DNA from: a virus
Taxonomy: Duplodnaviria; Heunggongvirae; Uroviricota; Caudoviricetes
Length of the DNA stretch: 38,749 bases
Reading direction: 5' to 3' (one strand)
Virus record (IMG/VR): IMGVR_UViG_2579778884_000012
Each line of letters starts with the position of its first letter. The first letter of the stretch is position 1. Shown here piece by piece: positions 1-24,574 of the stretch. A program made the position numbers and the translations under genes. The notes below the pieces were generated by a model, which was not told where the DNA came from, did not search any database, and saw nothing but the letters and a program-made list of their open reading frames with translations.

Positions 1-1362
1 ATGTTTAAACCGGAACTCCTTTCCCCGGCGGGAACGCTGAAAAATATGCGTTACGCTTTCGCTTATGGCGCAGATGCTGTTTATGCGGGCCAGCCGCGTT
101 ACTCCCTGCGTGTGCGCAACAACGAATTCAACCACGAAAATCTTCAACTCGGCATTAACGAAGCCCACGCGCTGGGGAAAAAGTTTTATGTCGTGGTCAA
201 CATTGCACCGCACAACGCCAAGCTGAAAACCTTTATCCGTGACCTGAAACCGGTGGTGGAAATGGGGCCGGATGCGCTGATTATGTCCGATCCAGGGCTG
301 ATTATGCTGGTGCGTGAGCACTTCCCTGAAATGCCGATCCATCTCTCGGTACAGGCTAACGCCGTGAACTGGGCGACGGTGAAATTCTGGCAGCAAATGG
401 GCCTGACCCGCGTGATCCTCTCTCGCGAACTGTCACTGGAAGAGATTGAAGAGATCCGCAATCAGGTGCCGGATATGGAAATCGAAATCTTCGTTCACGG
501 CGCGCTGTGCATGGCCTACTCCGGTCGCTGCCTGCTCTCTGGCTATATCAACAAGCGCGACCCGAACCAGGGCACCTGCACCAACGCCTGCCGCTGGGAG
601 TACAACGTCCAGGAAGGGAAAGAAGATGACGTTGGCAACATCGTACACAAGTACGAGCCGATTCCGGTGCAAAATGTTGAGCCGACGCTGGGTATCGGCG
701 CGCCAACCGACAAAGTGTTTATGATCGAAGAAGCCCAGCGTCCGGGCGAGTATATGACCGCGTTTGAAGATGAGCACGGCACTTACATCATGAACTCGAA
801 AGATCTGCGCGCCATCGCCCATGTTGAACGCCTGACCAAAATGGGCGTGCATTCGCTGAAAATCGAAGGCCGTACCAAATCTTTCTACTATTGCGCACGC
901 ACCGCGCAGGTTTACCGTAAAGCTATCGATGACGCCGCTGCGGGCAAACCGTTCGATACCAGCCTGCTGGAAACTCTGGAAGGTCTGGCGCATCGTGGCT
1001 ATACCGAAGGTTTCCTGCGTCGTCATACTCACGACGATTATCAGAACTACGAATACGGTTATTCAGTTTCTGACCGCCAGCAGTTTGTTGGTGAGTTTAC
1101 CGGTGAGCGCAAGGGGGACCTCGCGGCGGTAGCGGTGAAAAATAAATTCTCCGTTGGCGACAGCCTTGAGCTAATGACGCCGCAAGGCAACATTAACTTT
1201 ACCCTTGAGCACATGGAAAACGCCAAAGGTGAAGCTATGCCGGTCGCACCAGGCGATGGTTATACTGTGTGGCTCCCGGTGCCGCAGGATCTTGAGCTAA
1301 ATTACGCGCTGCTGATGCGTAATTTCTCCGGGGAAACCACGCGTAACCCCCACGGTAAGTGA
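1..1362 (+). CDS. yegQ: U32-family peptidase-like protein YegQ (tRNA hydroxylation protein TrhP), complete 453 aa
   Basis: ORF begins at window position 1; translation MFKPELLSPAGTLKNMRYAFAYGADAVYAGQPRY... recognised as E. coli YegQ, and the 453-aa length matches. Neighbouring cyaR and the P2 att site match the known yegQ-cyaR locus. Confidence 0.85.
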   Translation: MFKPELLSPAGTLKNMRYAFAYGADAVYAGQPRYSLRVRNNEFNHENLQLGINEAHALGKKFYVVVNIAPHNAKLKTFIRDLKPVVEMGPDALIMSDPGLIMLVREHFPEMPIHLSVQANAVNWATVKFWQQMGLTRVILSRELSLEEIEEIRNQVPDMEIEIFVHGALCMAYSGRCLLSGYINKRDPNQGTCTNACRWEYNVQEGKEDDVGNIVHKYEPIPVQNVEPTLGIGAPTDKVFMIEEAQRPGEYMTAFEDEHGTYIMNSKDLRAIAHVERLTKMGVHSLKIEGRTKSFYYCARTAQVYRKAIDDAAAGKPFDTSLLETLEGLAHRGYTEGFLRRHTHDDYQNYEYGYSVSDRQQFVGEFTGERKGDLAAVAVKNKFSVGDSLELMTPQGNINFTLEHMENAKGEAMPVAPGDGYTVWLPVPQDLELNYALLMRNFSGETTRNPHGK

Positions 1363-1446: not shown

Positions 1447-1533
1447 GCTGAAAAACATAACCCATAAAATGCTAGCTGTACCAGGAACCACCTCCTTAGC
1501 CTGTGTAATCTCCCTTACACGGGCTTATTTTTT
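1447..1533 (+). ncRNA. cyaR: Hfq-dependent small RNA CyaR (RyeE), about 87 nt, ending in an intrinsic terminator
   Basis: Sequence GCTGAAAAACATAACCCATAAAATGCTAGCTGTACCAGGAACCACCTCCTTAGCCTGTGTAATCTCCCTTACACGGGCTTATTTTTT recognised from memory as CyaR. It contains the CCUCCUU anti-SD seed, a 10-bp stem (1499..1508 / 1515..1524, one U-G pair) and a T-run (1525..1533). Location next to yegQ matches K-12. Confidence 0.7.
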
Positions 1534-1534
1534 A
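1507..1534. repeat. Prophage attachment core, yegQ/cyaR-proximal copy (next to the ogr end), 28 bp
   Basis: AATCTCCCTTACACGGGCTTATTTTTTA recurs at 38077..38104 with one mismatch (G1521 vs A38091). It is the reverse complement of the P2 att core as I recall it (AAAAAATAAGCCCGTGTAAGGGAGATT). It overlaps the cyaR terminator. Confidence 0.85.
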
Positions 1535-1596
1535 CGCGTAATACAATGAAATAAAAGGATTTATTTCTGGTCACGTCCACACATTGACCACATCGA

Positions 1597-1621
1597 CAAA
1601 AAAGCCCCTCGACTGAGGGGC
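1597..1621 (-). terminator. Intrinsic terminator downstream of ogr
   Basis: On the minus strand: GC-rich stem GCCCCTC-AGTC-GAGGGGC (1604..1621) followed by TTTTTT (complement of the A-run at 1598..1603), 13 nt after the ogr stop. Confidence 0.65.
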
Positions 1622-1634
1622 TTCCTGTTTGTAA

Positions 1635-1853
1635 TTACATCCACATAATTTGCTGCCCTGACGGCAACGGGTGCGGCCTTACGGCGTGGACTTCTCCCGG
1701 CTTCACGATGTATCGCTGTACCGACTCATAAGTGATGAACGTGGCACTACAATTCACGTTCTGGCACTGATGATAACGCTCTTTTGTCGTGTCAGTGATA
1801 TAGCGGCTTGTACGCGCATGTGCGGCATGCTGGCATAAAGGACAATGAAACAT
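1635..1853 (-). CDS. ogr: Late gene transcriptional activator Ogr (zinc-finger), 72 aa
   Basis: Translation from the internal Met: MFHCPLCQHAAHARTSRYITDTTKERYHQCQNVNCSATFITYESVQRYIVKPGEVHAVRPHPLPSGQQIMWM, recognised as P2 Ogr. The track ORF 1635..1916 has a 21-codon N-terminal extension that I trimmed. Confidence 0.9.
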   Translation of the reverse strand: MFHCPLCQHAAHARTSRYITDTTKERYHQCQNVNCSATFITYESVQRYIVKPGEVHAVRPHPLPSGQQIMWM

Positions 1854-1934
1854 CGCGAGCACCTCTTCCGGTTTTGTTGATGGTGCCATATTAGTTAATT
1901 TATCCTTATAAAACAAATAGATAAAATAAAAACG

Positions 1935-3098
1935 TCACTCATCATCTTCTGTTTCGTACTCCACATCAGAAAGCCTGACCTCAAGCTCTAAGGACGTCGT
2001 GAAGCCGCTATTATTCAGAAAATGTGTCACCTTAGTGATTGTCCAGTCCTGCTCGTCTATGACGCGCTTAAAGCCTGACACCTTAACCGGTGTTTCCGTG
2101 TAAATATCTGCCCGACCGGTAGCCAGGCTGATGGAGAACTCCGCAACGCCCCGTTGCAGTTTATCCCACTTCGCCTGAGCGGCGCGCATGGCCTGCGCTT
2201 TCGTGGCATATACCGTGGTCAGGGCAAAAACATTGTCAGCCTCACCGGCCATGTATTCACCTTCGCGCGCTTCCGGCGCTTTTGGCGCTTTCTTCTGCGT
2301 GACTGGTTTCGCTTTCGGGTGCTCCAGTGCGCGCAGGTGTTTTTCTTTCTTTTTGCGTTTCAGTTTTACCTTCTGCTTTTGCGGCTTCGGGTCTTTGGTG
2401 TGAAGCCACTTTGCCGTTACGCCGGTATAGGCTCCACGGTCAGCAATCGCAAAATGGTGGCGGTCGCCGTCGCTGCGGGTTATGGTGACCTGCGGGATTT
2501 TTTTACCGCTGGCCGTCACCCCCTGCCCCGCTTTGAGAAACAACAGTTTTCCCATTTTTACCGAGACCTCACCGCCGTTGCGTTCTGCAAGACGGGTCAG
2601 GAATTTCGCATCAGACTCCTGCGACTGGTCGATGTGCGGAATTTTAATTCCGGCCAGTGACGGAGCGACACTGGCTTCCAGCCTGTTACGGGTGGCTATC
2701 GCCTCAACAATTGCACCGAGCGTGGTGTCATGCCAAGAGCCTTCACGGCGGGAATTGAGCGTCCCGCGAAAATCTGCACTCCGTGCGCGGATGGTGACCA
2801 CATCCGGTGCGCCCCGGTGTTCAACCTCATCAACGGTAAATTTCCCTTTGCATACCAGGGCAAAACCTTTCCAGCCGATATACACCGTCAGGACAGCGCC
2901 ACGAACCGGCAGCCCGACCTGCCCGTCGGCATCGTTCAGTTCAATATCAAGCTGGTCAGCCTCAAAGCCCCGGTTATCCGTCAGGGTCATACTCATCAGA
3001 CGGTCGCTGATATTGCCGGTAATATCCCTGCTGTCGAGCATCAGCATGTAATCCGGCGTCAGCGTACTGCCTGCATCAAATGTCAGCGTATCCAGCAT
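1935..3098 (-). CDS. D: Tail protein gpD, 387 aa
   Basis: Position between ogr and U; 387 aa equals P2 gpD length. Confidence 0.88.
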   Translation of the reverse strand: MLDTLTFDAGSTLTPDYMLMLDSRDITGNISDRLMSMTLTDNRGFEADQLDIELNDADGQVGLPVRGAVLTVYIGWKGFALVCKGKFTVDEVEHRGAPDVVTIRARSADFRGTLNSRREGSWHDTTLGAIVEAIATRNRLEASVAPSLAGIKIPHIDQSQESDAKFLTRLAERNGGEVSVKMGKLLFLKAGQGVTASGKKIPQVTITRSDGDRHHFAIADRGAYTGVTAKWLHTKDPKPQKQKVKLKRKKKEKHLRALEHPKAKPVTQKKAPKAPEAREGEYMAGEADNVFALTTVYATKAQAMRAAQAKWDKLQRGVAEFSISLATGRADIYTETPVKVSGFKRVIDEQDWTITKVTHFLNNSGFTTSLELEVRLSDVEYETEDDE

Positions 3099-3577
3099 TA
3101 TCCCGCCCCCGTCATACCTGTGAATCTGGTCGCCATACTGCCAGCCTTACCGATGAGCGACTCCGCCTGTTTACCGATATCGCCATAAAGCGCGGCCAGT
3201 GATTCATCAACGCGGGTGAGCGACAGCGTAAAATCAATTTTCCGGGGTGTGCCGTCTGCAAAGAAAATACTCCCTGTTTCACTCACCCTGCTGATGACAT
3301 ACATGCCGTAAATCATGCCGGTACCATCCAGCAACGGCCACGCCCGGCCTTCCTCTGCCATCAGTCTGAGCGTGGTCATCGTCAGCTTGCCGCCGGTCAG
3401 TTCGGGATAAAGCACACCGGCAAGCGTCATGTTTTCCTCACCAACGCCGAGAAACTGGTAGGCATCCCGTTTACCGATACGGGAATTTGACGGCCAGCGA
3501 TAATCTGATTCACGCTGCATGGTCTGGTGTGGCAGCGTCTGGCGCATAAAAACAAACATACCTAACGCGAGCATCAT
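3098..3577 (-). CDS. U: Tail protein gpU, 159 aa
   Basis: 159 aa equals P2 gpU; sits between T and D; start overlaps the D stop. Confidence 0.88.
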   Translation of the reverse strand: MMLALGMFVFMRQTLPHQTMQRESDYRWPSNSRIGKRDAYQFLGVGEENMTLAGVLYPELTGGKLTMTTLRLMAEEGRAWPLLDGTGMIYGMYVISRVSETGSIFFADGTPRKIDFTLSLTRVDESLAALYGDIGKQAESLIGKAGSMATRFTGMTGAG

Positions 3578-3591
3578 TTTTCGTCACCTCC

Positions 3592-6039
3592 TTAACCGTC
3601 ATGCATCATGCTGGCACGGGCGCGCGCACGTTTATCCCGCTCGTATTTTTCGAGCGCATCCTGTAACTGGCGGTCAAGCTGTGTCCCCGGTGCAGTACCA
3701 CCCGTCAGGCTGATGTGATATTCGTTTTTACTCTGGTCCACATAAGAGCGGCCAGCCGGTGCCGTGACCGGCTGATAAGCCTGATAGCCTGCATAAGAGC
3801 TGGTCGCCGGAATATAACCACCGGTGCCATACGTGGCGGCATGAGTTCTGGCGGCGGTCTGGTCAAGTGTGTCTGACTCTTTGTTGATGACCCCGAGCTT
3901 TTCCAGTACCCAGTCAATGCCGCTGCGTAATTTGTTGAACGCATTAAGCGGCAGCATCAGCGCGTCAGCCAGTGCCTGCCCGAACATGACGCCCGTGTCA
4001 CGGCAACGGTTCAGGGTGTCCTGGGTGGCTTTGACCGGTGCAATCAGGTTTTTAAACCACTGCCACGCGGCCTGTAACTTTTCGCCCAGCCAGTCAAACA
4101 CCGGCTTAAGTGGCGTGAACAGTTCTCCCACCGGAGCAAATGCCGCTTTCAGCCCTTCCACCACACCGCCAAAGAATGCGCTGACAGGCTCCCAGTATTT
4201 ACGGATAAGCAACGCCCCGGCGACAATGGCAGCCACCACGGCCACAACCGGCCAGCTAATCGCCCCGATGGCCGTCATAACGGCACTACCAACCGTCGTG
4301 AAGATTGCCCCCATTGCGCCTGCTGCCGCGATGATGGCATTGATGCCGGTGATAACCGGCCAGGCCACGAGGCCAATGGCACCGATGATGCCAGTAAGCG
4401 CCAGTGCGCCACCGGCAATGAGACCAATGGTTGACGCCAGTGATTTGTTTTTCTGTATCCAGCCGTCGAGTTTTAACACATACTTTGTGGCCGTCTGCAT
4501 GAGCTTACGCAGTGCGCCTTCCTGCTGGTCAAACAGGTCAGTCCCCACCGCCTCATAAGCGGACTGAAACTCCTTAAAGTCACCGCCGAGATTGTCCTGC
4601 ATGATATTTACCAGCTCTGCGGTCTTCCCGTCTGAGGCTTTAAACGCAGCGGTCAGTTTGTCCAGCTTTCCGGTTGAGGCGGCAGTCATCAGCACGGCGG
4701 CGGCTGAGCTGGCCTCCTCCCCGAAAATGGTTTTCATGTATTCAGCCTGCTGGGCAGTACCGAGCCGGTTTTTCTCAAAACTGGCCTGCATTTCTTTCAG
4801 AATGGTAAATACTGGTCGGGTATTCCCTTTACTGTCTGAGGTTTTCACGCCAAGCTCTTTGAGTGCATCCCATGCTTTTCCCGTTGGTGCCTGCAGGCGA
4901 CTTAACACGGCACGGCTTCCCGTCCCCGCCATTGAGCCTGTGATTTTTGCATCATGCAGCGCCCCGACCATTGCGGCGGTTTCTTCAATGCTGACACCGG
5001 CATTTTTTGCCACTGGTGCGGCATAGGTCAGCGCATCGCTCATGCCGTCAAAATCGGCGGCGGTTTTGTTCATCGTCATGGAGAGAACATCCCCGATATG
5101 AGCGACCTTATCGTTTGAAAGCTGAAAGGCGGATTTCATCCCCATCAGCAGGGCGGCGTTTTCTTCCATCGTGCGGCGGTTCGCCAGTGCCATATTCAGC
5201 GTGACCGGCGTTGCCGCCTGAATGGCATCAACATCCCCACCGGCTTTCGCAATGATAATCTGTGCACCGGCTGCATCATCCGCCGAGGCGGCAGTATTGT
5301 CACCGAGCTGGCGCGCCTGCTTGCGGAGTGCGGCCATTTCGGCGGAGTCTTTTGCCACACCTAGCACGGCCTGCAATTCTGAGTTTTTCTGCGCAAACTC
5401 ATAACCGGGCATCAGTAGCTTAACACCGGCCATCGTTCCCGCCGCCGCAATCCCCACACCGGCAGCGCCCACTGAGGCCATATTTCCGGCCAGTTCCTTT
5501 CCGGACTGATAACGCTGTTTTACTGCGTTAAGTTTTGCCTGTTGCGCACTGACACGCGCCAGCGCGTCGCGCTGACGGTTAAGCTGTGCGGTGGTTTCAC
5601 TGATACGGTTTTTCAGTCCCTGCTCATCATGTGCAAGATTGCGGGTATTAATTCCCACAGCGGCCAGTTCCCGCTGCTGGCGTTTAACGGAATCCGTCAG
5701 GCGGTTATATTTCGCCTGTAAGTCCTCCGCCGCACGCTTTGCGGATTCCAGCACTTTCGCCTGAGCACGGGTCGGACGTTCGGTGTTTTTAAACTGTGTG
5801 GCAAGGGCTTCGGCTTCCTGCCGAGCCTTTTCAAGTGCATGACCAGTCACGGCGAGCTGTGCACTGGTCTTGCGAAATCCCTCAATACGGGATGCGTGAC
5901 CGTTCAGCTCGCGCAGTGATTTTTGTGTGTCCCGGATATCCCCCGACAGCGACTTACTCGCTGTACGGATGGATTTAAACGGGCGGGATGCCTGGTCAAC
6001 AGCCCTGAGCAATACCTGTAATTTTACATTGTTACTCAT
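3592..6039 (-). CDS. T: Tail tape measure protein gpT, 815 aa
   Basis: 815 aa equals P2 gpT. Ala/Gly-rich hydrophobic central segment and coiled-coil N-terminal region typical of tape measure proteins. Confidence 0.9.
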   Translation of the reverse strand: MSNNVKLQVLLRAVDQASRPFKSIRTASKSLSGDIRDTQKSLRELNGHASRIEGFRKTSAQLAVTGHALEKARQEAEALATQFKNTERPTRAQAKVLESAKRAAEDLQAKYNRLTDSVKRQQRELAAVGINTRNLAHDEQGLKNRISETTAQLNRQRDALARVSAQQAKLNAVKQRYQSGKELAGNMASVGAAGVGIAAAGTMAGVKLLMPGYEFAQKNSELQAVLGVAKDSAEMAALRKQARQLGDNTAASADDAAGAQIIIAKAGGDVDAIQAATPVTLNMALANRRTMEENAALLMGMKSAFQLSNDKVAHIGDVLSMTMNKTAADFDGMSDALTYAAPVAKNAGVSIEETAAMVGALHDAKITGSMAGTGSRAVLSRLQAPTGKAWDALKELGVKTSDSKGNTRPVFTILKEMQASFEKNRLGTAQQAEYMKTIFGEEASSAAAVLMTAASTGKLDKLTAAFKASDGKTAELVNIMQDNLGGDFKEFQSAYEAVGTDLFDQQEGALRKLMQTATKYVLKLDGWIQKNKSLASTIGLIAGGALALTGIIGAIGLVAWPVITGINAIIAAAGAMGAIFTTVGSAVMTAIGAISWPVVAVVAAIVAGALLIRKYWEPVSAFFGGVVEGLKAAFAPVGELFTPLKPVFDWLGEKLQAAWQWFKNLIAPVKATQDTLNRCRDTGVMFGQALADALMLPLNAFNKLRSGIDWVLEKLGVINKESDTLDQTAARTHAATYGTGGYIPATSSYAGYQAYQPVTAPAGRSYVDQSKNEYHISLTGGTAPGTQLDRQLQDALEKYERDKRARARASMMHDG

Positions 6040-6459
6040 TCGTGTTTCCGCTTCGCCGGAGCGCCTTTTCGCGCCATGTGATGAGTTCGGTCAGGCTCAT
6101 GGGATACAGTTCTGATGGCGGCCAGTGAAATATCACTGCCACATCCGCCATCAGGTCATCGACCGAGAGATTTTTCGGAAACGTCACTGCACCGAGTTCG
6201 GCGACAAAAAACCGACCACCTTACCGGCCAGCGCCACAAGGTCAGGCAGTTCCAGCGCGGCGACTTCCTGCTCGGTCAGCATCGGTGCCGTCATGCGCGG
6301 CAGCACCTTAATCAGTGCATCGACTTCGGAGTTTGCAACCGCAGCCAGACTGACACCGCGCAGCGTCCCGGCATTGGGTTTCATCAGCGTGACCTTTTCG
6401 ATAACCTGCTCACCACGTTTGACCGGATTTTCCAGGGTAATGACATTTTCTTTGTTCAT
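6032..6459 (-). CDS. E+E': gpE+E' tail assembly chaperone made by -1 programmed frameshift, 142 aa
   Basis: Zero-frame codons GGT TTT TTG (6205..6213) form the T_TTT_TTG heptamer. I followed the -1 frame by hand to the first stop (TAA at 6032..6034): 85 + 57 codons = 142 aa, equal to P2 E+E'. The 3' end overlaps the T start (6039). Confidence 0.75.
6184..6459 (-). CDS. E: Tail assembly chaperone gpE, 91 aa
   Basis: 91 aa equals P2 gpE; located between FII and T; ends in GFLSPNSVQ over a T_TTT_TTG slippery site. Confidence 0.88.
   Translation of the reverse strand: MNKENVITLENPVKRGEQVIEKVTLMKPNAGTLRGVSLAAVANSEVDALIKVLPRMTAPMLTEQEVAALELPDLVALAGKVVGFLSPNSVQ
6205..6211 (-). promoter_or_regulatory. 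-1 ribosomal frameshift slippery heptamer T_TTT_TTG for E/E'
   Basis: Run of six T on the minus strand (A-run 6206..6211 on plus) in the zero-frame context GGT TTT TTG near the 3' end of E. Confidence 0.7.
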
Positions 6460-6487
6460 GGTTTTCTCACTTCTGAATCAGGGTTAA

Positions 6488-6508
6488 CCGGTCAGCCTGG
6501 CTGACCGG
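6488..6508 (-). other. Stem-loop between FII stop and E start
   Basis: CCGGTCAGC / GCTGACCGG 9-bp inverted repeat with a 3-nt loop and no following T-run. Possible RNA processing or attenuation structure; function unknown. Confidence 0.3.
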
Positions 6509-6515
6509 ATGAAAA

Positions 6516-7034
6516 TCACAGGCCGATATTGCGGCGGTGTTGCTCCAGTCGGTCGACGCCGTTCACCTTCTCAATCATGTTGATGGTGTCGATTTCGACC
6601 AGCTCCTTACCGTCCATCGTCAGCCGGAAATAGGTGCAGACCACGGAGATTTTCGACTCAGTGTCTTCTCCCTGTTTCCCCTCGCCGGTGTCGATTTCTT
6701 TCTGACGGCCACGCATGACCACCTCGACGGCCACCGTTTCGCCGGTATCGTCGCGCTGGTAAGAGCCTGCAAAACGAATCGGCACGGCATCCACACCGGT
6801 TGCGGCGTAAAGCTCCCAGATAACCGAATCCGGGAAGCCCCCGAGCGACCACTCCATTGACAGCGCATCGTCATCAAGGCCGAGGTCTACCGGTGCGCTG
6901 CCGTTCATCCCCGCACCGCGATAGTTTTCGAGCTTACGGGTCAGTTTTGGCAGCGTGACGGACTTTGCAACGCCCTGATAGCTGTAGCCGTTCAGAAAGA
7001 CGTTCATTAACTTGAGTTTGCGCGGCATTGCCAT
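6516..7034 (-). CDS. FII: Tail tube protein gpFII, 172 aa
   Basis: 172 aa equals P2 FII; lies directly after FI. Confidence 0.9.
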   Translation of the reverse strand: MAMPRKLKLMNVFLNGYSYQGVAKSVTLPKLTRKLENYRGAGMNGSAPVDLGLDDDALSMEWSLGGFPDSVIWELYAATGVDAVPIRFAGSYQRDDTGETVAVEVVMRGRQKEIDTGEGKQGEDTESKISVVCTYFRLTMDGKELVEIDTINMIEKVNGVDRLEQHRRNIGL

Positions 7035-7046
7035 CGGTCAGGCTCC

Positions 7047-8237
7047 TTAATTGCTGTTAACCGAGGTGACCAGATTTGCCAGGTATTTATCGGTAATACG
7101 CTGGCGCAGGGTCAGGTTTTCAAGAGGAGGCACCGGGGTATAGTCGTAGTCGATATACAGTTTTCCGGCCTTGAGGGTTTCCGCATCGTTGGATTCTTCG
7201 CTGAACCAGCAGGTCGCATCCACGATATAGCCGTTTGTTTTCAGCTCACGGAATTTGGCATTAATGCCGTCAACGATGTCGCGAATCAGCGTTGCGGTGA
7301 TGGGCTTATCCACCGCCCACATGTGCGCCTCAGCCATCGTGTCGGCCAGCACCTGCGCGGTGCGGGTGTAGTTTTCAAAGAGGAACAGCGGGTCATCGGA
7401 GCAGGTACGGTTACCCCAGAAGCGGAAACCGTCGCGGCGAATCAGCGTTGTGACGCCTGACTCGTTAAGCAGGTCAGCATCGGTGCCGGACTCCTGCAAA
7501 TCCCAGAATACAGAGGCGCTGATGCCGGTAACACCGTTCACCCCAACGTTGGACAGCGTTTTATGCCAGCCCTGCTCCTGGTCGATTTTAGCGCGCAGAC
7601 CCAGCGCACGGGCGGTGGCATACGCGGTGGCGGTGGTACTGGTGACCGTATCCCATGCGAGGAAATCCGGCCAGATGACCATCAGCTCACGCTGGCTGAA
7701 ATTCTGGCGGTAGGCTTTCACCTCGGAAATGGTCTTACATCCCCATGCGCTGATATACCCGAAAGCACGCAGCTTCTGACAGACTGATGCCAGTGCAACA
7801 GCCACCTCTTTGGTGTCCAGTCCCGGCACGCCGAGAATACGCGGTTTAACACCAGTTACCGACTCCGCCGCCAGCAGGGCTTTCAGTCCGGTGTACTGAC
7901 CGTTTTCGTCGGTGGTGCCGATGATATTGGAAACGGTCTGCGCGAGTTTCGTTTCCTCGTCGTCGCCGGTGCCGTCTTCCACACGCACGACAACGGTGAC
8001 CGGTTTTGACTGGTCGGCGATAGCCTGCAACGATGCCGCCAGCGTGCCTTTTTTACCGGCCTTTGCAATCGCGCTCTGCACATTGGTAATCAGCACCGGT
8101 TTATTGAGGGGGAAGGTTTCCGCATCCGCATCGCTGGCCGTGCAGACCATGCCGACAATGGCGGTGGATACGGTGGAAATGACGCGGGTGCCGTCGTTAA
8201 TCTCCAGCACCTGCACGCCATGATGATAGTCGCTCAT
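7047..8237 (-). CDS. FI: Contractile tail sheath protein gpFI, 396 aa
   Basis: 396 aa equals P2 FI; start MSDYHHGVQVLEINDGTRVISTVSTAIVGMV. Confidence 0.9.
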   Translation of the reverse strand: MSDYHHGVQVLEINDGTRVISTVSTAIVGMVCTASDADAETFPLNKPVLITNVQSAIAKAGKKGTLAASLQAIADQSKPVTVVVRVEDGTGDDEETKLAQTVSNIIGTTDENGQYTGLKALLAAESVTGVKPRILGVPGLDTKEVAVALASVCQKLRAFGYISAWGCKTISEVKAYRQNFSQRELMVIWPDFLAWDTVTSTTATAYATARALGLRAKIDQEQGWHKTLSNVGVNGVTGISASVFWDLQESGTDADLLNESGVTTLIRRDGFRFWGNRTCSDDPLFLFENYTRTAQVLADTMAEAHMWAVDKPITATLIRDIVDGINAKFRELKTNGYIVDATCWFSEESNDAETLKAGKLYIDYDYTPVPPLENLTLRQRITDKYLANLVTSVNSN

Positions 8238-8671
8238 CCGTTTAACTCCGTGGTTAATGGGTGCAACTATTTTCTGTTGGGCAGTGCATGAGACGCTATT
8301 TGACCTGGCTGGTCAGTGGATGAAACAACAGATAAAGAAAAGGCGGGCAATCAGCCCGCCCGTCCTGATTTGTACTCGCTCAGTTTCCAACTGACAATTT
8401 ACGTAGCCAAAACGCTATCAGCTCTGACAGCCAGCTTTGAGCGAGTCGAAAAAGTTCATACCTTTCTGCTGGTGAAAGTTTAACTAACAGTTCAACCTAT
8501 CAATTAATTGATGAACAGGTTGAGGCGTTTTTAATATCTCTGCGTCATCTGAGACGATTTTGCGCTACAGGATTTACGGCTTATCTGGGGGCATTCTTGA
8601 GCCCTGACTCCTCTGAAAACATAATTAGGCCATACCTGTGACCTGCTCTTCGTTGGTAAGGTTAGCGAATA

Positions 8672-9781
8672 TTAATCTGAGTCCATTTTCCCAAACTCTG
8701 TCAGGCCGAAAACGGAGCTACCAGAAACATGAGCTTGTAAGCCCGCTTCCTGCATGTCACTTAATTCAACTTCTTGGCTATCCTCTAATCCGATAGAGAA
8801 CATGGGATAGGCCCAGTTCCAATTCGGATCAGGAACCAAACTATTATTCTCTATCTTGAAAAAGCTGACCATGAGATGATGCCTTCCCTGTATCGCCTCT
8901 TCATCATTGATGTTGACCAGTACACCAAAGTGCTTGTAGCCGGCTTGTCCATTCTCGAACATTTTTATCTTGGTGCCGTTTCTGAACATCCAAAAAGAAT
9001 GATTTCCAGTGGAATCAGCGACCTGCAAGTTATCTTCGTCAATTTCCCAATTAAGATATTGTTTGATATCAGACTTTGGTTTGAGTTTTTCGTCATTACT
9101 AAACCATTGTATTGCCGGAAGTGGAAGGTGAAGACCTTCCGGCTGGGGAGGCTGACCTGCAGCAATGGAATGCATGATCTCTGTCATTGATGGAAGCCCC
9201 ATCAAATGCCATACATCATGGATATCCTTTTTAAGTATAAGAAGCCCTTTGGATACACCATCCGCGTAAGTTGACTTTAAGCGGACTAGTATGTCCTTGT
9301 TACCATCTTTGTCGAGGTCTTCAATGTTTACTGAAGAAGCCACAACCTCGTCGTCCCCTGCGTCTGGGATGATTGCCCAATACCCAATATCGTAGAATCC
9401 AGGTCTGCCAACCACCTTATCTATCAAACTCTGTCCAGAGGGCTCGAAGACCATCAGGAAACGGCTAAGGGCACCATTTGTGCTCACAGTTCTTCCGTAG
9501 ACTACAACGGAGTTTGAGGTGCTTAGATCGAGAGACTCGCTAGCCACTGAGTCAAACGCCACTGAGTCCAAATGTGTGGCAAGCTGCTGCTGGATGCACT
9601 CCCGAGCCATTTCAACTAATTTTTCGCGAACATCAGCAGATCGTATTGGCTGTGAAGTGAAATGGAAAAGCCCTACTGTAGCCGCTATGCCTATTATTCC
9701 CGAAATAACGGTACTTAGAACCTGCTCCTTTACCACTTTCACAACTTTCATCAATAGCTTCTTCAACTTCACTTCAGGCAC
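8672..9781 (-). CDS. Hypothetical membrane-anchored protein (accessory cargo at the Z/fun position), up to 369 aa
   Basis: Long AT-rich ORF between FI and G. One N-terminal hydrophobic helix (VLSTVISGIIGIAATVGLFHF) followed by about 320 aa of soluble domain with no motif I recognise. The track start is a GTG directly after an in-frame TAG; the first ATG is 10 codons in (9751), so the true start is uncertain. Confidence 0.6.
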   Translation of the reverse strand: MPEVKLKKLLMKVVKVVKEQVLSTVISGIIGIAATVGLFHFTSQPIRSADVREKLVEMARECIQQQLATHLDSVAFDSVASESLDLSTSNSVVVYGRTVSTNGALSRFLMVFEPSGQSLIDKVVGRPGFYDIGYWAIIPDAGDDEVVASSVNIEDLDKDGNKDILVRLKSTYADGVSKGLLILKKDIHDVWHLMGLPSMTEIMHSIAAGQPPQPEGLHLPLPAIQWFSNDEKLKPKSDIKQYLNWEIDEDNLQVADSTGNHSFWMFRNGTKIKMFENGQAGYKHFGVLVNINDEEAIQGRHHLMVSFFKIENNSLVPDPNWNWAYPMFSIGLEDSQEVELSDMQEAGLQAHVSGSSVFGLTEFGKMDSD

Positions 9782-9994
9782 CTAAATACTATTAAACTTG
9801 TCATGGGAAAATCCGATTATTATTGTAGAGAACAACAAAAACTGGCCTCGATTTTAGAGTTTTTCCAGTATCTATTTTCCGACTCGTTCGGCGGTAATCC
9901 ACCGTTATATTCATGAGGCCGGGGTGCACTATAATATTCAACTATATACTCTGTTTGTAGTGGCACATTAAATTTGGTGACAGATATGCATCAC

Positions 9995-10018
9995 GTCCGC
10001 TCCTAGCACAGAGCGGAC
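9995..10018 (-). other. Inverted repeat GTCCGCTC-N8-GAGCGGAC downstream of G
   Basis: 8-bp perfect stems seen directly; no clear T-run. Could be the terminator of the V-G operon or a binding site. Confidence 0.3.
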
Positions 10019-10079
10019 AGTCAGATTAGGTTTTACTCTGTGCCATAGATGAGTAATCTCACACCAGAGCTAATACGAT

Positions 10080-10658
10080 TTATTGCGGCATTTCAGGCCA
10101 TTCTATATCCGGAGCATTTTCCGGCTGAACGCGATTAAGTAGCACACGGTATTTTTTCCAGTGTGTCAGGCTTAACTTTTCTTCCTCGGTAGCCATATCT
10201 AAATCGACAGCATCCTGCAGCATGGCAATGATTTCACCTGCATATGCAATCTGCTCTTTCTTCTGAGACTCAGCCGCTCTGACAAGTGCATCACGCTCTG
10301 CATTCTCATCATTCACCCACGCATTTCCGTTCCATTTCTGATAATCCCCCTCCGGGGAAATGGCTGTCACGTCTGGAGGTAATGCGCCAAGTTCAGAAAT
10401 ATAAATGGCTGCTCCCGTTTTCGTTTCGTAGACAGTCTTTCCGCGATGATCTTCCATCAACTCCCATTTCATTTCATCTGCATTGAAAACGGCTGCATAA
10501 CCAGCAGGAATATCAGGTGGTGCAATATCTGTACTGTTTGCAGGCAGGCCAGTATACGGCGGAATATATGCATCACTTTCGCCAATAAACTCATTGGTTC
10601 CATCAAGTAAATTGAAAACGCGGATAGTTTGTGCTTCTGCACTCATTCTGAAAGCCAT
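10080..10658 (-). CDS. G: Tail fiber assembly chaperone gpG (Tfa-like), 192 aa
   Basis: Immediately downstream of the H tail fiber with its start overlapping the H stop; size and position match P2 gpG / lambda Tfa-type chaperones. Confidence 0.8.
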
Positions 10659-13276
10659 TATGCAAGCCTCACAATATAGTTAAATGCGATGTTTTTGACG
10701 GTGTTTTCGGTATTGCCAGTAGCATTTACGGTAATGGAATGCCCGTGTGAGCCAATAGCAACAGTGTGTGAATGTGCACCAATACCAACAGTATGGTTAT
10801 GTGCTCCAATGTCGACTGTATGTGCATGATTGCCTGATGAACTTGTAGTCGTAGCACCTTTATCACTTCGCGGAACACCATAATCTGCACCGCCTGATTG
10901 CACGCTCACAGCAAAACCGACGGTATGTGTATGATTGCCAGAAGTATTGGTTGATTTTGTGCCGTGGTTAAACGTACTGACTGTTTTTGTCCCGTAATCA
11001 AATGAACTGGTCGTTTTCGTTCCTAAGTCCGTATTTGACGCACTGGCGCTGTGAGTATGCGATTTAATCCCGTCCTGTTCCTGTGACAATACGGCACGCC
11101 CACTGGCGGGTTTGCCCTTGATTGTCCAGCCGCGCATATCTGGAATAACACCAGAAGGATAGGCAATAGCCAGTTTCGGATATGCTGCCTTATCAAACGT
11201 CTGTCCCTGCATGATTGCATAGCCTGCAGGCGGTGTATCTGATGGCCATGGCAGCGGAACACCTGGCGGAAATACTTCAATATTTGCCGAGCCGTCAAAT
11301 TTCACGCCGTTAATTGTCCTTGCCGTTTTCAGCTTTGTTGCTGTAGCCGCATTGCCGGACAGTTCGCCTGAAAGACCACCGCTGAATGTCTGTTTCGCCG
11401 CCCATGTCTGAGCTTCGTCGATAATTGGCACACGTCTTGTCGTGATCGTGCGGCTTCCCGGATTTCCTGAAATACGCACCATAAAAAAGCGGTAATTCGC
11501 TTTACTTACAGTGCTGCGCCATACATGCATTGAGCGCCCCGTACCGGAATCATCACTCGGACCAACTGCGATGTTTATCAGGTTGCCATCAATGACGCCC
11601 CAGTCCATACCGTCGGGAATGTTGGTCATGTTATCAAGCCGAACGGTTATCAGACTGCCCGGCACAAAGTCGTGGGTCTGCCAGTCCAGGCTGGTGAGCT
11701 TTGCCACTGCACCGCCGATACCCAGATTCAGGGGAAGTGAATACGAGGTGTAGACTTCCCGCCATTCGCTCCACGAGCTGCCGGTATAGACGCGCTCAAA
11801 CGTGCGACCTTTAAGGGTTGCACCTGTTCCGGCAGTTGTATAACGCTGCCATACGTTAACACCATCAAAGCGCCTCAACACTTCCAGAATACCGAGGACT
11901 GTCACGCCGTTTCCGTCCAGTATTGGACCGTTGGTCGCTTTACCTGTAACGCTGTAAATACCTGGTGAAGTCACATCATTCAAATCCCCGTCGTAATAAC
12001 GACTCTCTGACTGATGACCAACTCTTAACCACGGTTCCCACTGCGGATTTGATGCATCCCAGCTTGCCGCAAGGCAGCGGACGTACATATTTCCACGGCG
12101 AGTGGTATAACGTTGCGTTCTTCCATAATTCCCGCCTTCGAGGATCTCAAGCGTCCCCTGAGCAAAGCCGCCTTCCTCTGGATAATTGCGTTCATATGAA
12201 GCTATAGCCGAGCTACTGTTACGCCATAAACCAAGATGCTCGGCGGCTCCAAGCGTATTCAGGTCTATAGTCGTACTCAAAGGGCGGGTCGCTGATTGAG
12301 TGTGACGCCATACGCCCCACGGACCATCAGTGCCATTCCACTTATTGGCGAGTTTACGCATGTATACATTGCCGTCTCTTGTGGTAAAGCGTTGCGTACC
12401 TGCAAAATTGCCGGCAGCAAAAACCTCAAGCACACCGACAGCATTATCTTCCGGGAAATTTTTCTCCAGTGTTGCGTTGGTGGATGTTGCTTTAGACCAG
12501 ATACCTGAATAAGCCTTAACAGGACCAAACGTATTCAGATCAGCATCAACCGGCATTTCGCCATTGTTTTTCATAAACGTCAGGCTGGTAACGCCAACAT
12601 TGTCCAGAAAAGCTGATTTATCCTGGATATCTGCACCGTTCTGATTTTTCGCCAGACGTGAATTTGCGTTGTCATTCGCAGCCTTGACCGCTTTTGGCGT
12701 TGCCGCCAGTGACTCACTGGTGCTGTTTGTTGCACTGCTTAACTGAGTAAAACCTTTCTCTGTCAGCGTGGCGTCAGGATGGCGGCGGGACTGCTCATGC
12801 TCTGCGATTTTGTCATCGACGTAATCCTGCGTCGCCATCACTGTGCTGGCATCAATACTCAGCTCAACGGACGCCACGTTACTGAGAATAATAACCATGC
12901 GGCAGGTCTGCGCACGTCCGGAGCCTTCAGCCAGTTCTGGCTTATAGCTTTCTGCCATGTTGGATACCGCAATCAGTGTTCCGGCATCATCATACAGACC
13001 AAGCTCACGCATCCAGAAGCCGCCCACTTCTGGCGGAACAACCAGTTCAGCCACGATATAGTTTTTATTCTTGTTATCCACACTGACTTTATTCAGAGCG
13101 TGACGCCAGACTTCATGCACCAGTTTCGTCTGACCGGCATCCGGCACCGGCAATTGGCCATTACCGTCACCCACAGCCATTGCAGACAGGTTTACTTTTT
13201 TCCCGCCGGGAACAGTAGCGGCTGCCAGCTTCGCGGCTCCGGCAGTAGTGATAACGGTTTTAAATTTCGTGCTCAT
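10658..13276 (-). CDS. H: Tail fiber protein gpH, 872 aa, mosaic C-terminal half
   Basis: N-terminus [24 protein letters not shown]... recognised as the conserved gpH N-terminal domain. Middle holds three tandem ~55-aa modules; C-terminus holds His-x-His repeats ([37 protein letters not shown]). Confidence 0.88.
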
Positions 13277-13286
13277 TGTTTCTCAC

Positions 13287-13817
13287 TTATCCGGGATAAA
13301 CAGTAATAACATCACCATCACAGACCACACCGCCTGTATACAGATAGCCGGGAATGTCCTGGATAATGTTCAGACCGATAAGGTGGCGACTTGCGGGTTT
13401 GGCATCGGCAATCAGCCGTTCCATTTCCAGATACATCTCCTCCGTGATGCCGCTTTCCAGCACACCGATATCAAGGCGAAAGGTTCCGGGCGGGTCGTTT
13501 GTCTCCCACCATTCCTTTACGTTAATGAGATAGCCGAGCGGCTCCACCACACGCCGGATTGCGCCGATAGTGCCTTTATGACAGTGGATGAAATAGGCAT
13601 CGCGGATAACGGCGCGTTTTGTCGCTTCCGGCCACTTTTCATCCCACCTGTCGACCGAAAACGCCCACGCCAGCCACGGCAGCAGATTTGCCGGGCAGGT
13701 GTCCGGGTTCCACAGCTCACGAATACTGACCGGCGTTTTTTCAATTTCCGCACAGGCTTTTGCGGCGGCGACCTCAAGCGGTGATGAGCCGGTCGGCAGC
13801 AGGCGCGAATCACTCAT
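13287..13817 (-). CDS. I: Baseplate protein gpI, 176 aa
   Basis: 176 aa equals P2 gpI; between J and H. Confidence 0.88.
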   Translation of the reverse strand: MSDSRLLPTGSSPLEVAAAKACAEIEKTPVSIRELWNPDTCPANLLPWLAWAFSVDRWDEKWPEATKRAVIRDAYFIHCHKGTIGAIRRVVEPLGYLINVKEWWETNDPPGTFRLDIGVLESGITEEMYLEMERLIADAKPASRHLIGLNIIQDIPGYLYTGGVVCDGDVITVYPG

Positions 13818-14718
13818 CCGAGCCTCCGGTCACAACGCGGTATTCGGTACAGAAAGACGCCTGCGTATTGTTGAGCACGATGTCGGCCAGTGGTGCAGCC
13901 AGTTCGACACGCTGCACGCCTTCCACATGCAAAGCGGCATAAATGGCAGACAGACGGATGTCGCGCCCCAGCCGGTGCTGTGCCGTGATGTACGCTTCCA
14001 GTTTTTTCACGGCAGCAGCGCGGATGGGTTCGCTTTCGGGACCAGGGTAAAGGTAAAGCGTGGCGTTTATCTGGTATTCAACGATGGCGGCAGACTGCAC
14101 GGTCACGCGGTCGGCCACCGGCCTGACGTCCTCACCATTAAGGGCGTTACGCACCACCGCCAGCAGGTCTTCGGAAGCGACACCGTTATTTTCACGTGAC
14201 AGCACAGAGATGGTGACACAGGCCGGAGACGGACTGGTGACAGAGATATCCGCGACACGCCCGTCAGCACTGCGTCCATGATACTGATAGGCACCCACCG
14301 ACCCGGCGACGCTTAAACCTTCAAACGCCTGCTGAATACGCAGACGATAATCGGTGTCAGATTCCATCACTGCCGGTGTCGGCGGGATGGTCGAATCATC
14401 TGCCGGGGTGATAATCAGGCGCGTGGTGTTGTAATTGGCACCAATCACATCAAGGTCATTACCGGCGGCACAGGCCAGCATCACCGCCCGTGCGGCCTCA
14501 TTCACACGCTGACGCCAGATAAGCTCACGATAAGCATTTTCCTCCAGCAGTTTGACGAGAGGCTCAGATTCCAGTGTCAGGGTACGGGCGACCGCCTCCT
14601 GCTGGTCTTCCGGGTAAAGGGAAATCAGTGTCGCCTTGCGTTCGGCAAGAATGGTTTCAAAGTCCAGCTCCTCGACCACATCCGGTGCGGGTAGCTGGTT
14701 CAGGTCGATAATCGGCAT
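13810..14718 (-). CDS. J: Baseplate protein gpJ, 302 aa
   Basis: 302 aa equals P2 gpJ; overlaps the I start. Confidence 0.88.
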   Translation of the reverse strand: MPIIDLNQLPAPDVVEELDFETILAERKATLISLYPEDQQEAVARTLTLESEPLVKLLEENAYRELIWRQRVNEAARAVMLACAAGNDLDVIGANYNTTRLIITPADDSTIPPTPAVMESDTDYRLRIQQAFEGLSVAGSVGAYQYHGRSADGRVADISVTSPSPACVTISVLSRENNGVASEDLLAVVRNALNGEDVRPVADRVTVQSAAIVEYQINATLYLYPGPESEPIRAAAVKKLEAYITAQHRLGRDIRLSAIYAALHVEGVQRVELAAPLADIVLNNTQASFCTEYRVVTGGSDE

Positions 14719-14722
14719 GGTT

Positions 14723-15070
14723 TCAACTCACAGGGATGGTTAACGAAAGTGGCTGGCCGGTGTCGTTGTGCTGGCCGGTTAACGTGACCGTCATTCGCCC
14801 GTCAAAACTGCGCTCAGTGGTGACGGATGACAGGGTGACGCGGGGTTCCCATTTCAGCACCGCCATGTAACAGGCGACCTTAATCTGCAACTCAAGCGCC
14901 GGGGTCTGCGGCTGGTCAATCATTGACGCCAGCAACGAGCCGTAATCACGACGCATCACCCGTGAGCCGACCGGTGTGCGCAGGATATCGCCGATACTCT
15001 GGCTGATATGCTCAAGGTCAGTGACAGTCAGGCCATCACTGCGATTCATTCCGAGATAACGCGCTGTCAT
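14723..15070 (-). CDS. W: Baseplate wedge protein gpW (gp25-like), 115 aa
   Basis: 115 aa equals P2 gpW; between V and J. Confidence 0.88.
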   Translation of the reverse strand: MTARYLGMNRSDGLTVTDLEHISQSIGDILRTPVGSRVMRRDYGSLLASMIDQPQTPALELQIKVACYMAVLKWEPRVTLSSVTTERSFDGRMTVTLTGQHNDTGQPLSLTIPVS

Positions 15071-15702
15071 AAAGGACTCCCGGTTGTGCCGCCGCTGTCG
15101 CCGGGGTGTTTATGGGTATGCAGTACCTTACCGTTTGATGAGAGTTCACCGCCGGTGTGTTCAATGTTGCCGCGCATCGTCCCGCCCTTCTGCACTTCCA
15201 GCGTGCCGGTGATCAGCTTGTTTGTGCAGACCACCTCCGGCGTGTCCAGAGTGATGCGGGTTGATGCTTTCACCATGACCACCGGCACCGTGGCAGTAAC
15301 AGAATCAGAAGCCGTCACGCTGGCCGTTTTAATTCCGCTTACCGTAAGCGCACTGGTTTCGGGTTCATACTCAATCACCGCCCCGTCAGGGAAACGGATA
15401 TGCAGGGCATCCGCCGACGCAGACGGCGCAGGGTTATCGCCGGAATAAATCCCCGGCAGAACGAACGCCGTGTCGAGTTCACCGCCCACGGCCAGAATCA
15501 GCACCTGTTCCCCCACGGAAGGTGCCCACCATGTGCGCGAACGTCCGGCGCGATGGGTCAGCCACTGAAGCCAGTCGGTGCACATGCCGCCGGTCTGCAC
15601 ACGGCAGCGACCGGCGTTAAGGTCGGTTTCAACGATAATGCCGGTACGAATCATGTTGCGCAGTGCGCGCGCGAGTTCCTGAATATTTGCGAGAGTGTCC
15701 AT
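15067..15702 (-). CDS. V: Baseplate spike protein gpV, 211 aa
   Basis: Starting at the internal Met (MDTLANIQELARALRNMIRTGIIVETD...) gives 211 aa, equal to P2 gpV. The track ORF carries a 6-codon extension. Confidence 0.85.
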   Translation of the reverse strand: MDTLANIQELARALRNMIRTGIIVETDLNAGRCRVQTGGMCTDWLQWLTHRAGRSRTWWAPSVGEQVLILAVGGELDTAFVLPGIYSGDNPAPSASADALHIRFPDGAVIEYEPETSALTVSGIKTASVTASDSVTATVPVVMVKASTRITLDTPEVVCTNKLITGTLEVQKGGTMRGNIEHTGGELSSNGKVLHTHKHPGDSGGTTGSPL

Positions 15703-15785
15703 GCATGTGAGATTGCACAATATATAAAAGTTATGCTATCTGGATTCATTTGTAGAACCACCAGACAACATTCAAGGAGAGCGTA

Positions 15786-16562
15786 ATGGTCAGCTATAAT
15801 GTGACTAATGTGTGGGAGCTAATCGTTTTGTATCTTTTGGTCTTTGCAGTATTAGCATTTTTTAGCTTTGGTAAAAGTAACCTTATGAGGCTTATTGCAC
15901 ATTATTTCAAATTTGGATATTCAGACAAAAAATTAAAAAGACTGGACCGCGAGTGGCGCGACATTCAACTATTTAAAATACTTAACGGAATCAATGTATC
16001 AGGCATCGAAGATGTGAGAATGATACAGCAGGGGCTGATTGATGGAAAACTAAAAACATCGGATTTTTTCCTTACTCGCTTCTGGGGAGACATAACAGAA
16101 CCGCCATGCATCACAAAAACAATGAGTGCAGTCCTGGCCGGAATTCTTTATATTATCTTCGCATGTTGCATACACAACGAGCAATCTGCCATAGTAGAGG
16201 ATGCCATAGCCATACCATATAAAAATATGATGTACCATGTTTATAATGACAAGGTTCTTTTGTTCTCCGACAATAAAACAGATAAGTTCTATAAAGCTTT
16301 TAGCATTGCCGATTGCAAGAGACTGCAGAACACTTTTGTAACAGACACACTTCCTGCAATCGCCTGCAATAAGCTCTTACAGCTAAACGAGGAGGACTCC
16401 GAATGGTTAAGTCAGGAGATTAAAGATAATAACAGCCACAGAAAAACATTATTAATAATATCCCTAATCTATTTCATTTCAGGTGCGTATTTTCATGAAA
16501 GGAGATCACTCAATAACTTCCATCGAGATCGGGTAATAACATTTGAACAGATCGCTGAATAA
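15786..16562 (+). CDS. Hypothetical integral membrane protein (accessory gene at the orf30 position), 258 aa as it stands
   Basis: AT-rich ORF on the strand opposite the late genes, with a good RBS (AAGGAGAGCGTA ATG). Three predicted hydrophobic helices (about residues 12-29, 114-130, 230-245). Its last seven codons and stop lie inside the inferred IS terminal repeat. Confidence 0.65.
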   Translation: MVSYNVTNVWELIVLYLLVFAVLAFFSFGKSNLMRLIAHYFKFGYSDKKLKRLDREWRDIQLFKILNGINVSGIEDVRMIQQGLIDGKLKTSDFFLTRFWGDITEPPCITKTMSAVLAGILYIIFACCIHNEQSAIVEDAIAIPYKNMMYHVYNDKVLLFSDNKTDKFYKAFSIADCKRLQNTFVTDTLPAIACNKLLQLNEEDSEWLSQEIKDNNSHRKTLLIISLIYFISGAYFHERRSLNNFHRDRVITFEQIAE

Positions 16563-16676
16563 CATCGATGGAGATCACTTTTGACTCATTTTGTTATTCA
16601 GTGATCTCCATCAATGTTATTGGAACTTCACAGGTGTGTTGATCTGTATCTTTTGCCATTCCGGTAAAGGATACCT

Positions 16677-18218: not shown

Positions 18219-18229
18219 TACGGGATCCA

Positions 18230-18979: not shown

Positions 18980-19163
18980 AGGTAATTTAAAAACGGTTCT
19001 GTGAAAGTGACACGAACCGATCTCCATCGATGTTACTCACCGATCTCCTTCACGGTAATACGCATCAGGTCTATTTATATTCCTGTCATACACAAAATTC
19101 CTTTACGCCAATAAGAAGGTTTTAGAATACAAAGCATCAAATAAAAACCACTCATAAACCTCT

Positions 19164-19198
19164 AAACATTGAGCGACCAGCACGGCCGCTCAATGTTT
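19164..19198 (-). terminator. Terminator-like hairpin downstream of S (end of the O-S late operon)
   Basis: Twelve-bp inverted repeat AAACATTGAGCG-N11-CGCTCAATGTTT, 31 nt after the S stop, followed on the minus strand by a moderately T-rich stretch. Confidence 0.5.
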
Positions 19199-19228
19199 AA
19201 TTGCGCATCAGCCTCTGCCTGGATAAAA

Positions 19229-21087: not shown

Positions 21088-21101
21088 GGTGTTTACTCCG
21101 T

Positions 21102-21880: not shown

Positions 21881-21883
21881 GCG

Positions 21884-22596: not shown

Positions 22597-22695
22597 GACT
22601 ACCTCTGAAAAGTCGGGCGGTGGACGCCGGTGCAGTGTCAGGTGATTCACCCTCACTGACCGGCGTGCCGCCCTGGCGCGGGGCGCATTCGGTTG

Positions 22696-23439: not shown

Positions 23440-23442
23440 CGG

Positions 23443-24516: not shown

Positions 24517-24574
24517 AGTTTTTCCTGAAATTAAGGGTTAATCGTGAAGGTTTTCCCGGACTGACTGACGCCGG

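Follow-up and report, generated by a model that had tools for sequence, protein, structure and literature searches.

A P2-like prophage at the 3' end of the small RNA gene cyaR, with an att core that appears to rebuild the RNA's terminator

The window analysed here is the whole 38,749-nucleotide stretch of the IMG/VR record IMGVR_UViG_2579778884_000012. Its left end carries the host gene yegQ (trhP) and, directly 3' of it and likewise on the plus strand, the gene for the small RNA CyaR (RyeE). The Rfam family RF00112 (CyaR_RyeE) matched positions 1445-1530 of the plus strand with 100.7 bits (E 3.7e-19; gathering score 47). This match spans model positions 1-85 of 85, is not truncated, and confirms the segment 1447..1533 as cyaR, as an earlier reading made from the letters alone (the sequence-only reading) had proposed. 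CyaR/RyeE is the sole Rfam family in the window. No match to the sigma-70 consensus was found by promoter scan between 1300 and 1950, a result that is uninformative where a promoter is activator-dependent. ARAGORN detected no tRNA or tmRNA in the window, and a gene of either kind was therefore ruled out as the integration target. The host genes and the parts of the cyaR terminator are as follows.

1..1362, plus strand: yegQ/trhP coding sequence, the upstream host gene (open reading frame; name from the annotation of matching E. coli genomes)
1447..1533, plus strand: cyaR (ryeE) small RNA gene (Rfam RF00112; the start at 1447 is the placement of the sequence-only reading)
1498..1533, plus strand: cyaR intrinsic terminator (Rfam structure line, ViennaRNA fold and terminator scan, concordant)
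1498-1508, plus strand: 5' arm of the terminator, AGCCTGTGTAA
1509-1514, plus strand: terminator loop, TCTCCC
1515-1525, plus strand: 3' arm of the terminator, TTACACGGGCT
1526-1533, plus strand: T-tract of the terminator, TATTTTTT
38432..38749, minus strand: yegR, the downstream host gene (open reading frame; yegR in matching genomes)

The terminator is built from an 11-bp stem and a 6-nt loop, followed by TATTTTTT. Its hairpin has a predicted energy of -15.9 kcal/mol (z -6.65), and none of 200 shuffled sequences folded as stably (ViennaRNA). A Rho-independent terminator with a U-tract, the Hfq-binding 3' end of the CyaR class, is present in the sequence.

Between cyaR and the right-hand host flank lies a P2-like prophage of about 36.5 kb with the gene order ogr-D-U-T-E-FII-FI ... 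A ... B-cox-C-int. It is 99.97% identical over 16 kb to the prophage of NZ_CP015085, in which a cox-family gene is annotated. The region of int and attP is 98.9% identical to phage P2 at the nucleotide level over 1121 nt. The sequence-only reading had prophage DNA begin immediately after the end of the small RNA, and this is the case, with P2 P-arm features present from 1532 on. It had also put the ogr terminator about 65 bp away; the terminator is indeed near, at a measured 68 bp past the T-tract (1601-1624). The prophage features are listed below.

1534..38076, no strand assigned: body of the P2-like prophage, about 36.5 kb (open reading frame table and annotation of the near-identical NZ_CP015085 prophage)
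1532..1565, no strand assigned: IHF-site region of the P arm, on the cyaR side (5 mismatches in 34 to the annotated P2 IHF site)
1569..1596, no strand assigned: Int arm-type sites of the P arm, GTCCACA / GACCACA repeats (identical to the P2 annotation)
1601..1624, minus strand: terminator of ogr and the F operon (1 mismatch to the P2 annotation; hairpin in the terminator scan, reported there on the plus strand)
1635..1853, minus strand: ogr, late-gene activator of 72 aa (Pfam Ogr_Delta zinc finger, 2.1e-21; ogrK in matching genomes)
36984..37997, plus strand: int, P2-type tyrosine integrase of 337 aa (Pfam Int_N and Phage_integrase; open reading frame intact)
37963..37989, no strand assigned: Int arm-type sites of the P' arm, two copies of GTGTCCACA, within the 3' end of int (identical to the P2 annotation)
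37987..38060, no strand assigned: Cox-binding region of attP, by P2 annotation (0 mismatches to the P2 Cox site)

The annotated parts of the P2 attP are divided between the two junctions, as integration predicts. The Int, IHF and Cox sites of the arms, predicted by their match to the annotated P2 sites, stand in the P2 arrangement.

The prophage also contains DNA of other kinds. An IS21-family element occupies 16493-19064, with istA at 16677-18218 (NCBIfam transpos_IS21) and istB at 18230-18979 (Pfam IstB_IS21). The element truncates the 3' end of a cargo open reading frame (15786-16562) located at the P2 orf30 position, and it is missing from the NZ_CP015085 prophage, which is otherwise 99.97% identical along that stretch. 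Four cargo open reading frames were assigned to PHROGs families of unknown function, and none of the four had a match in Pfam, NCBIfam or PADLOC.

8672-9781, minus strand: cargo open reading frame, phrog_15038
15786-16562, plus strand: cargo open reading frame, phrog_2407
28828-29769, plus strand: cargo open reading frame, phrog_5937
30089-30769, minus strand: cargo open reading frame, phrog_20483

The cargo genes occupy positions that are variable in P2, namely after FI and in the V-S and Q-A intervals. The block at 28.6-31.1 kb is unlike the cargo of the sister prophages.

A direct-repeat search found that 1507-1541 and 38077-38111 are identical at 32 of 35 positions. The annotated 27-bp attP core of P2 (NC_001895 24356-24382) is AATCTCCCTTACACGGGCTTATTTTTT, and the published core and the cyaR side of the window agree at 27 of 27 positions, beside an int region that is 98.9% identical to that of P2. 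The copy on the int side agrees at 26 of 27. A 28-nt probe matched exactly two places in the window, and two matches occurred in none of 100 shuffled sequences.

1507..1533, no strand assigned: att core on the cyaR/ogr side, attR in P2 usage (0 mismatches to NC_001895 24356-24382; G at 1521)
38077..38103, no strand assigned: int-side att core, termed attL for P2 (matches the P2 core at 26/27; A at 38091 in place of G)

The repeat reported earlier from the sequence is therefore real, but its extent needs correction: an exact core of 28 bp (1507-1534) does not hold, since the copies agree at 27 of 28 positions (G1521 versus A38091) and the P2 core has 27 bp. Nor does the core start inside the loop. 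It begins at the last two A's of the 5' arm (1507-1508), covers the loop and the whole 3' arm, and runs through the T-tract, as had been stated for its end. Similarity between the junctions extends to 1541/38111, with two further mismatches beyond G1521/A38091. Just right of the core, the cyaR side carries the phage variant ACGCGTAA and the int side the host variant ATGCATAA, which places the exchange left of core position 29. The int-side copy lacks the 5' partner of the stem, as the sequence-only reading had noted, and it forms no hairpin (-3.1 kcal/mol, z +0.64). By these folding predictions there is a single functional terminator, in the cyaR-side copy only.

Comparison with complete E. 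coli genomes shows how this locus looks elsewhere. The yegQ-cyaR segment was found in 5424 of 5426 complete genomes, P2 DNA of the ogr side follows cyaR in 1167 of them, and the int-side junction is present in 812. Unoccupied yegQ-cyaR-yegR sites exist in several allelic forms. When window positions 1-1506 and 38077-38749 were joined, that is, when 1507-38076 was deleted, the resulting 2179 bp matched the unoccupied sites of two ST131 genomes with 0 differences, as against 25-40 differing positions for other empty sites. The alignment to an unoccupied locus that the sequence-only reading had proposed thus restores an existing site exactly and defines the attB of the window's host lineage. A stretch of some 170 bp (~38258-38428), located on the way from the attachment site to yegR, is missing in other empty sites, including that of K-12, and present in the ST131 ones, so it is lineage-specific host DNA outside the prophage. 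A small hypothetical open reading frame is annotated within it in ON470606. This record was considered as an independent attP and rejected, because it is an excised stretch of prophage sequence in which the host genes yegR and yegS and a repressor are included.

Remnants of P2 are also found at the locus. K-12 carries ogrK and a C-terminal fragment of D there, and classical mapping is said to have placed a K-12 remnant consisting of part of D, ogr and attR at the equivalent of the preferred site of E. coli C. In a comparison of positions 3330-3400 of the K-12 locus extract with window positions 2131-2157, the D fragment is joined to the int-side core at about position 10/11 (...GAGAACTCTGC|TACACGGGC...). 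The D sequence at this fusion point, AACTCCGCAAC, bears a weak resemblance to the left half of the core, which suggests that the K-12 remnant may have arisen by Int-mediated deletion at a pseudo-site.

Even the unoccupied E. coli sites contain a further trace: the core is followed by 8 bp and then by a version of the P2 P arm that has about 75% identity and is short of 16 bp of the IHF region. This relic retains one intact Int arm repeat, TGACCACAT, and a second partial core, AATCTCCCTT, comes after it. In the window it scored 21 in local alignment, as against 7.7 +/- 1.25 for shuffled sequences, and none of 2000 shuffles scored as high. It resembles a scar left by an ancient P2-like occupant, or else the host source of the phage arm.

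38123-38150, no strand assigned: degenerate copy of the P2 P arm, within host flank 38112..38163 (22/28)
38154-38163, no strand assigned: second partial core AATCTCCCTT in the host flank (direct repeat; also in unoccupied sites)

Two other explanations of the junctions were weighed against integration at a simple attB. It is barely conceivable that the two copies resemble each other by chance or through faulty assembly and mark no attachment site: nothing was found in its favour, the repeat arose in none of 100 shuffles and equals the annotated P2 attP core, both junctions are common to hundreds of independent complete genomes, and the empty site is reconstructed exactly. Entry of the prophage by homologous recombination with an earlier P2 remnant, such as ogr-D' of K-12, would fit the frequency of P2 remnants at this locus, the K-12 ogrK and D fragment among them, and the degenerate P-arm copy seen even in "empty" sites. 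It is very improbable nonetheless, as both junctions are clean copies of the core, the int-side junction has no D' fragment or second ogr, and removal of the prophage restores a real unoccupied allele exactly. The P-arm relic itself, about 40 bp at 75% identity, is too short and too diverged for efficient homologous recombination.

The matches of core, arms and int, the exact reconstruction of the empty site and the single hairpin therefore point to a temperate phage of the P2 type (Peduovirus) whose tyrosine integrase has inserted it at an attB overlapping the 3' end of cyaR, a reading to which a probability of roughly 90% is given. Everything expected in sequence of a P2-type Int/attP system was found: the integrase, a core at both ends, the arm sites and an attB with a single core. 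In the proposed course of events, the promoter, body and 5' arm of cyaR would remain host DNA, and past the crossover the 3' arm, the T-tract and all that follows would be supplied by the phage. The attP has the same core, so the small RNA would keep a working intrinsic terminator. The displaced half-terminator of the host would be left 36.5 kb away beside int, without its 5' arm and unable to fold. Integration was earlier proposed to preserve an intact 3' end of the small RNA, with the terminator rebuilt by the core, and the full-model Rfam match and the intact hairpin at the junction agree with such a reconstitution of the 3' end. Judged by its sequence, CyaR in the lysogen would be made and terminated normally and would differ from that of a non-lysogen by one base (U-A to U.G).

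This base is core position 15. The ST131-type empty site has A there, while the window has G on the cyaR side (1521) and A on the int side (38091). A pairs with U1502 of the 5' arm and G gives a U.G wobble, at a predicted cost of about 0.7 kcal/mol (-15.9 for the G allele versus -16.6 for the A allele). All six distinct sequenced P2-type phages that were found with this P' arm have G at position 15, and none has A. With the phage allele at 1521 and the host allele at 38091, the distal part of the 3' arm from 1521 on, the T-tract and the DNA beyond it in the lysogen's cyaR terminator are most likely phage DNA. The allele pattern thus strongly indicates a phage origin of G1521. The prophage is, however, 99.97% identical over 16 kb to one with A on both sides (NZ_CP015085), which means that G1521 might in principle have arisen by a subsequent A-to-G mutation. 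In hosts with a seven-T site (K-12-type flanks), the exchange would also reset the U-tail to six.

Three lysogens allow the alleles on both sides to be compared, and all three match the ST131 empty site at 100% identity in both host flanks.

Window: G on the cyaR side, A on the int side
NZ_LR890693, a distinct P2-like phage, about 97% identical and with other cargo: A on the cyaR side, G on the int side
NZ_CP015085, prophage 99.97% identical over 16 kb: A on the cyaR side, A on the int side

If the cleavage points are fixed, the reciprocal arrangements G/A and A/G require the polymorphic base to lie between the two cuts, which suggests that core position 15 is inside the overlap region of Int. 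On balance, strand exchange would fall within about 1515-1521 (TTACAC[G]). The crossover is thereby placed, from the lysogen alleles, inside the interval given in the sequence-only reading, at or near 1515-1521. A cross between attP(G) and attB(A) would give a heteroduplex at position 15 that could segregate either way at replication. An A/A lysogen would need an extra step: mismatch repair, gene conversion, or an A-allele phage outside the present sample. An imperfect inverted repeat, AATCTCCC ... GGGCTTATT, may be read around TTACAC, and two older junctions, the K-12 D' remnant and the second partial core of the host flank, break at about core position 10/11; both observations agree with exchange at ~1515-1521. 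Heterology in the overlap region normally lowers the reactions of tyrosine recombinases, as is known from lambda Int, and this counts against placing position 15 in the overlap.

Exchange strictly 5' of position 15 (1507-1520), outside the overlap, with the A/G and A/A lysogens produced by later conversion, mutation or re-integration, is a possible but rather unlikely alternative. A phage with G entering a host with A would then give G at cyaR and A at int, which is the arrangement of the window (G1521, A38091), and the breaks near position 10/11 in the K-12 D' junction and the second partial core would suit a crossover on the left too. Queries of 40 nt for the int-side alleles matched 20 (A) and 720 genomes at a coverage of at least 80%; matches of lower coverage, 28-nt core seeds in cyaR, were dropped. 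Of the 20 genomes with A on the int side, one (NZ_CP015085) gave a full-length match to cyaR(A) plus arm and Ecol_542 gave a partial one. The cyaR-side allele was read in those two, and many of the 20 are possibly clonal. Against a crossover on the left stands NZ_LR890693, whose reciprocal arrangement (A at cyaR, G at int) between ST131 flanks, in a distinct prophage, implies an independent integration. Fixed cleavage outside position 15 cannot directly yield both arrangements.

Exchange at ~1515-1521, across position 15, would have consequences for both partners. With each integration or excision, cyaR could take up the base of the phage, or attP that of the host. It is a tentative idea, more doubtful than probable, that P2-type phages and their hosts trade alleles in both directions within the 3' half of the CyaR terminator, and that the majority G is possibly an imprint of phages. 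Among the complete E. coli genomes the cyaR allele at position 15 is A in 527 and G in 4861 of 5426. The minority A allele and the sister taxa examined have a U-A pair at this position. If G is an imprint, the degenerate P arm in every "empty" site would mark ancient occupation. The P2-like phages of Citrobacter, Enterobacter and Buttiauxella appear to track the cyaR stems of their own hosts in the same way.

The site is also found outside E. coli. A pattern scan that took one genome for each species gave 120 cyaR loci in Enterobacterales, and yegQ lies upstream in nearly all of them. In several of these species a P2-type arm (the GAAATAA motif with GTCCACA and GACCACAT repeats) comes directly after the T-tract of cyaR: Citrobacter sp. 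Awk 4, two Citrobacter youngae genomes, Enterobacter sp. UNJFSC 003, a Buttiauxella MAG, "Enterobacteriaceae bacterium G50" and "Bacterium BS0013". Degenerate relics of the arm are present in E. coli, E. albertii and Salmonella enterica subsp. diarizonae. Homologues of Ogr, D and U were found beside cyaR in other genera at only three of the 120 species loci, within stretches of 8 kb; ogr-D-U-T with further tail genes is present at two species loci and an ogr-D' remnant at one. The remaining arm-bearing loci are remnants, or the 8-kb stretch is too short or too diverged.

At the arm-bearing loci the right half of the core matches the host's own stem (ACGCAGGC in place of ACACGGGC). As the scan pattern prescribed the left half, the loop AATCTCCCTT, the scan does not speak to its conservation; this loop is in upper case in the Rfam consensus. 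The 3' arm of the Buttiauxella MAG has one C.A mismatch to the 5' arm, and that of Enterobacter sp. UNJFSC 003 has one G.U wobble. A single stem mismatch beside a P2-type arm is what would be expected of a 3' arm supplied by a phage, as at 1521. In Enterobacter, Kosakonia, Klebsiella, Citrobacter and Phytobacter the T-tract is followed by a conserved motif pair (...GTTCTTAC... ...GAGATACACTT), which probably marks the promoter region of the gene that ancestrally lay downstream. E. coli is without the GTTCTTAC/GAGATACACTT pair and has the P-arm relic and yegR there; yegR was detected in the E. coli locus only.

The locus has a published history. "cyaR RNA" is given as the insertion site of three elements: a P2 prophage in E. 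coli W, ogr-D' in K-12 and P2*B in E. coli B (PMC3032704; Archer 2011). A passage in Bobay 2013 (PMC3603311), citing Wassarman 2001, describes ryeE in E. coli as "previously known to be targeted by phages". Neither the paper on the structure of P2 Cox nor the Phollow preprint mentions a cyaR attB. A survey of P2-like integrases describes the core-plus-arms architecture with the arm consensus tgTGGaCa, and places phage 186 in a tRNA-Ile gene and Fels-2/SopE-phi in ssrA (PMC3448106). cyaR/ryeE has therefore been known as a phage target since about 2001, and the window holds an ordinary P2 system at an ordinary P2 site. It shares with P2 the 27-bp core, identical Int arm and Cox sites, an integrase region at 98.9% identity, ogr beside cyaR with int distal, and the host locus yegQ-cyaR-yegR, where K-12 carries ogrK-D'. 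The differences are in size, about 36.5 kb versus 33.6 kb for P2, which is due to different cargo genes and the IS21-family insertion, and in the arm after the core, ACGCGTAATACAATG in the window versus ACGTACAATAAATTG in P2.

The sequence-only reading likened the arrangement to that left by tRNA-targeting integrases, and as an analogy this is apt. In both, attB overlaps the 3' end of a structured and conserved RNA gene, the attP copy rebuilds the gene, and the opposite junction retains a partial copy that does not function. The target in the window is, however, the terminator of an Hfq-type small RNA with no tRNA-like fold, and the duplicated 27 bp rebuild only the loop, the 3' arm and the T-tract. 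The mechanism is alike, yet the system is not a member of the tRNA/tmRNA integration class, as its target is a small RNA terminator. A second small RNA locus used in this way, sdsR/ryeB-ryeA of Salmonella, is described as a prophage attachment site in passages of PMC3333887 and, for Balbontin 2008, of PMC3603311. It too is a conserved enterobacterial small RNA gene repeatedly entered by phages or other foreign DNA, but the small RNA, the phages and the integrase differ from those at cyaR.

As a discovery the locus carries little weight, since site, core and phage family are textbook P2 biology. It is a clean worked example of an RNA gene other than a tRNA being rebuilt by an att core. The present analysis adds the exact anatomy of the site, the single-base evidence for a chimeric terminator and a testable inference about the region of exchange, for which the natural one-base polymorphism of the core serves as a free genetic map of strand exchange by P2 Int. 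P2-type DNA adjoins the final bases of CyaR in about one fifth of complete E. coli genomes. In lysogens the phage would set the stem wobble and the 6-versus-7 U tail, which could slightly alter termination efficiency or Hfq binding.

Two smaller features were noted at the junctions. An 81-codon open reading frame with a GTG start (38014-38259, plus strand) bridges the int-side core and the host flank; it is annotated as a hypothetical protein in ON470606, is without a Pfam match, and is probably spurious, as it straddles the recombination junction. Where the T-tract ends, positions 1530-1539 (TTACGCGTAA, phage side) and 38100-38109 (TTATGCATAA, host side) each form a perfect 10-bp palindrome, and two symmetric transitions distinguish one from the other; P2 has only TACGTA.
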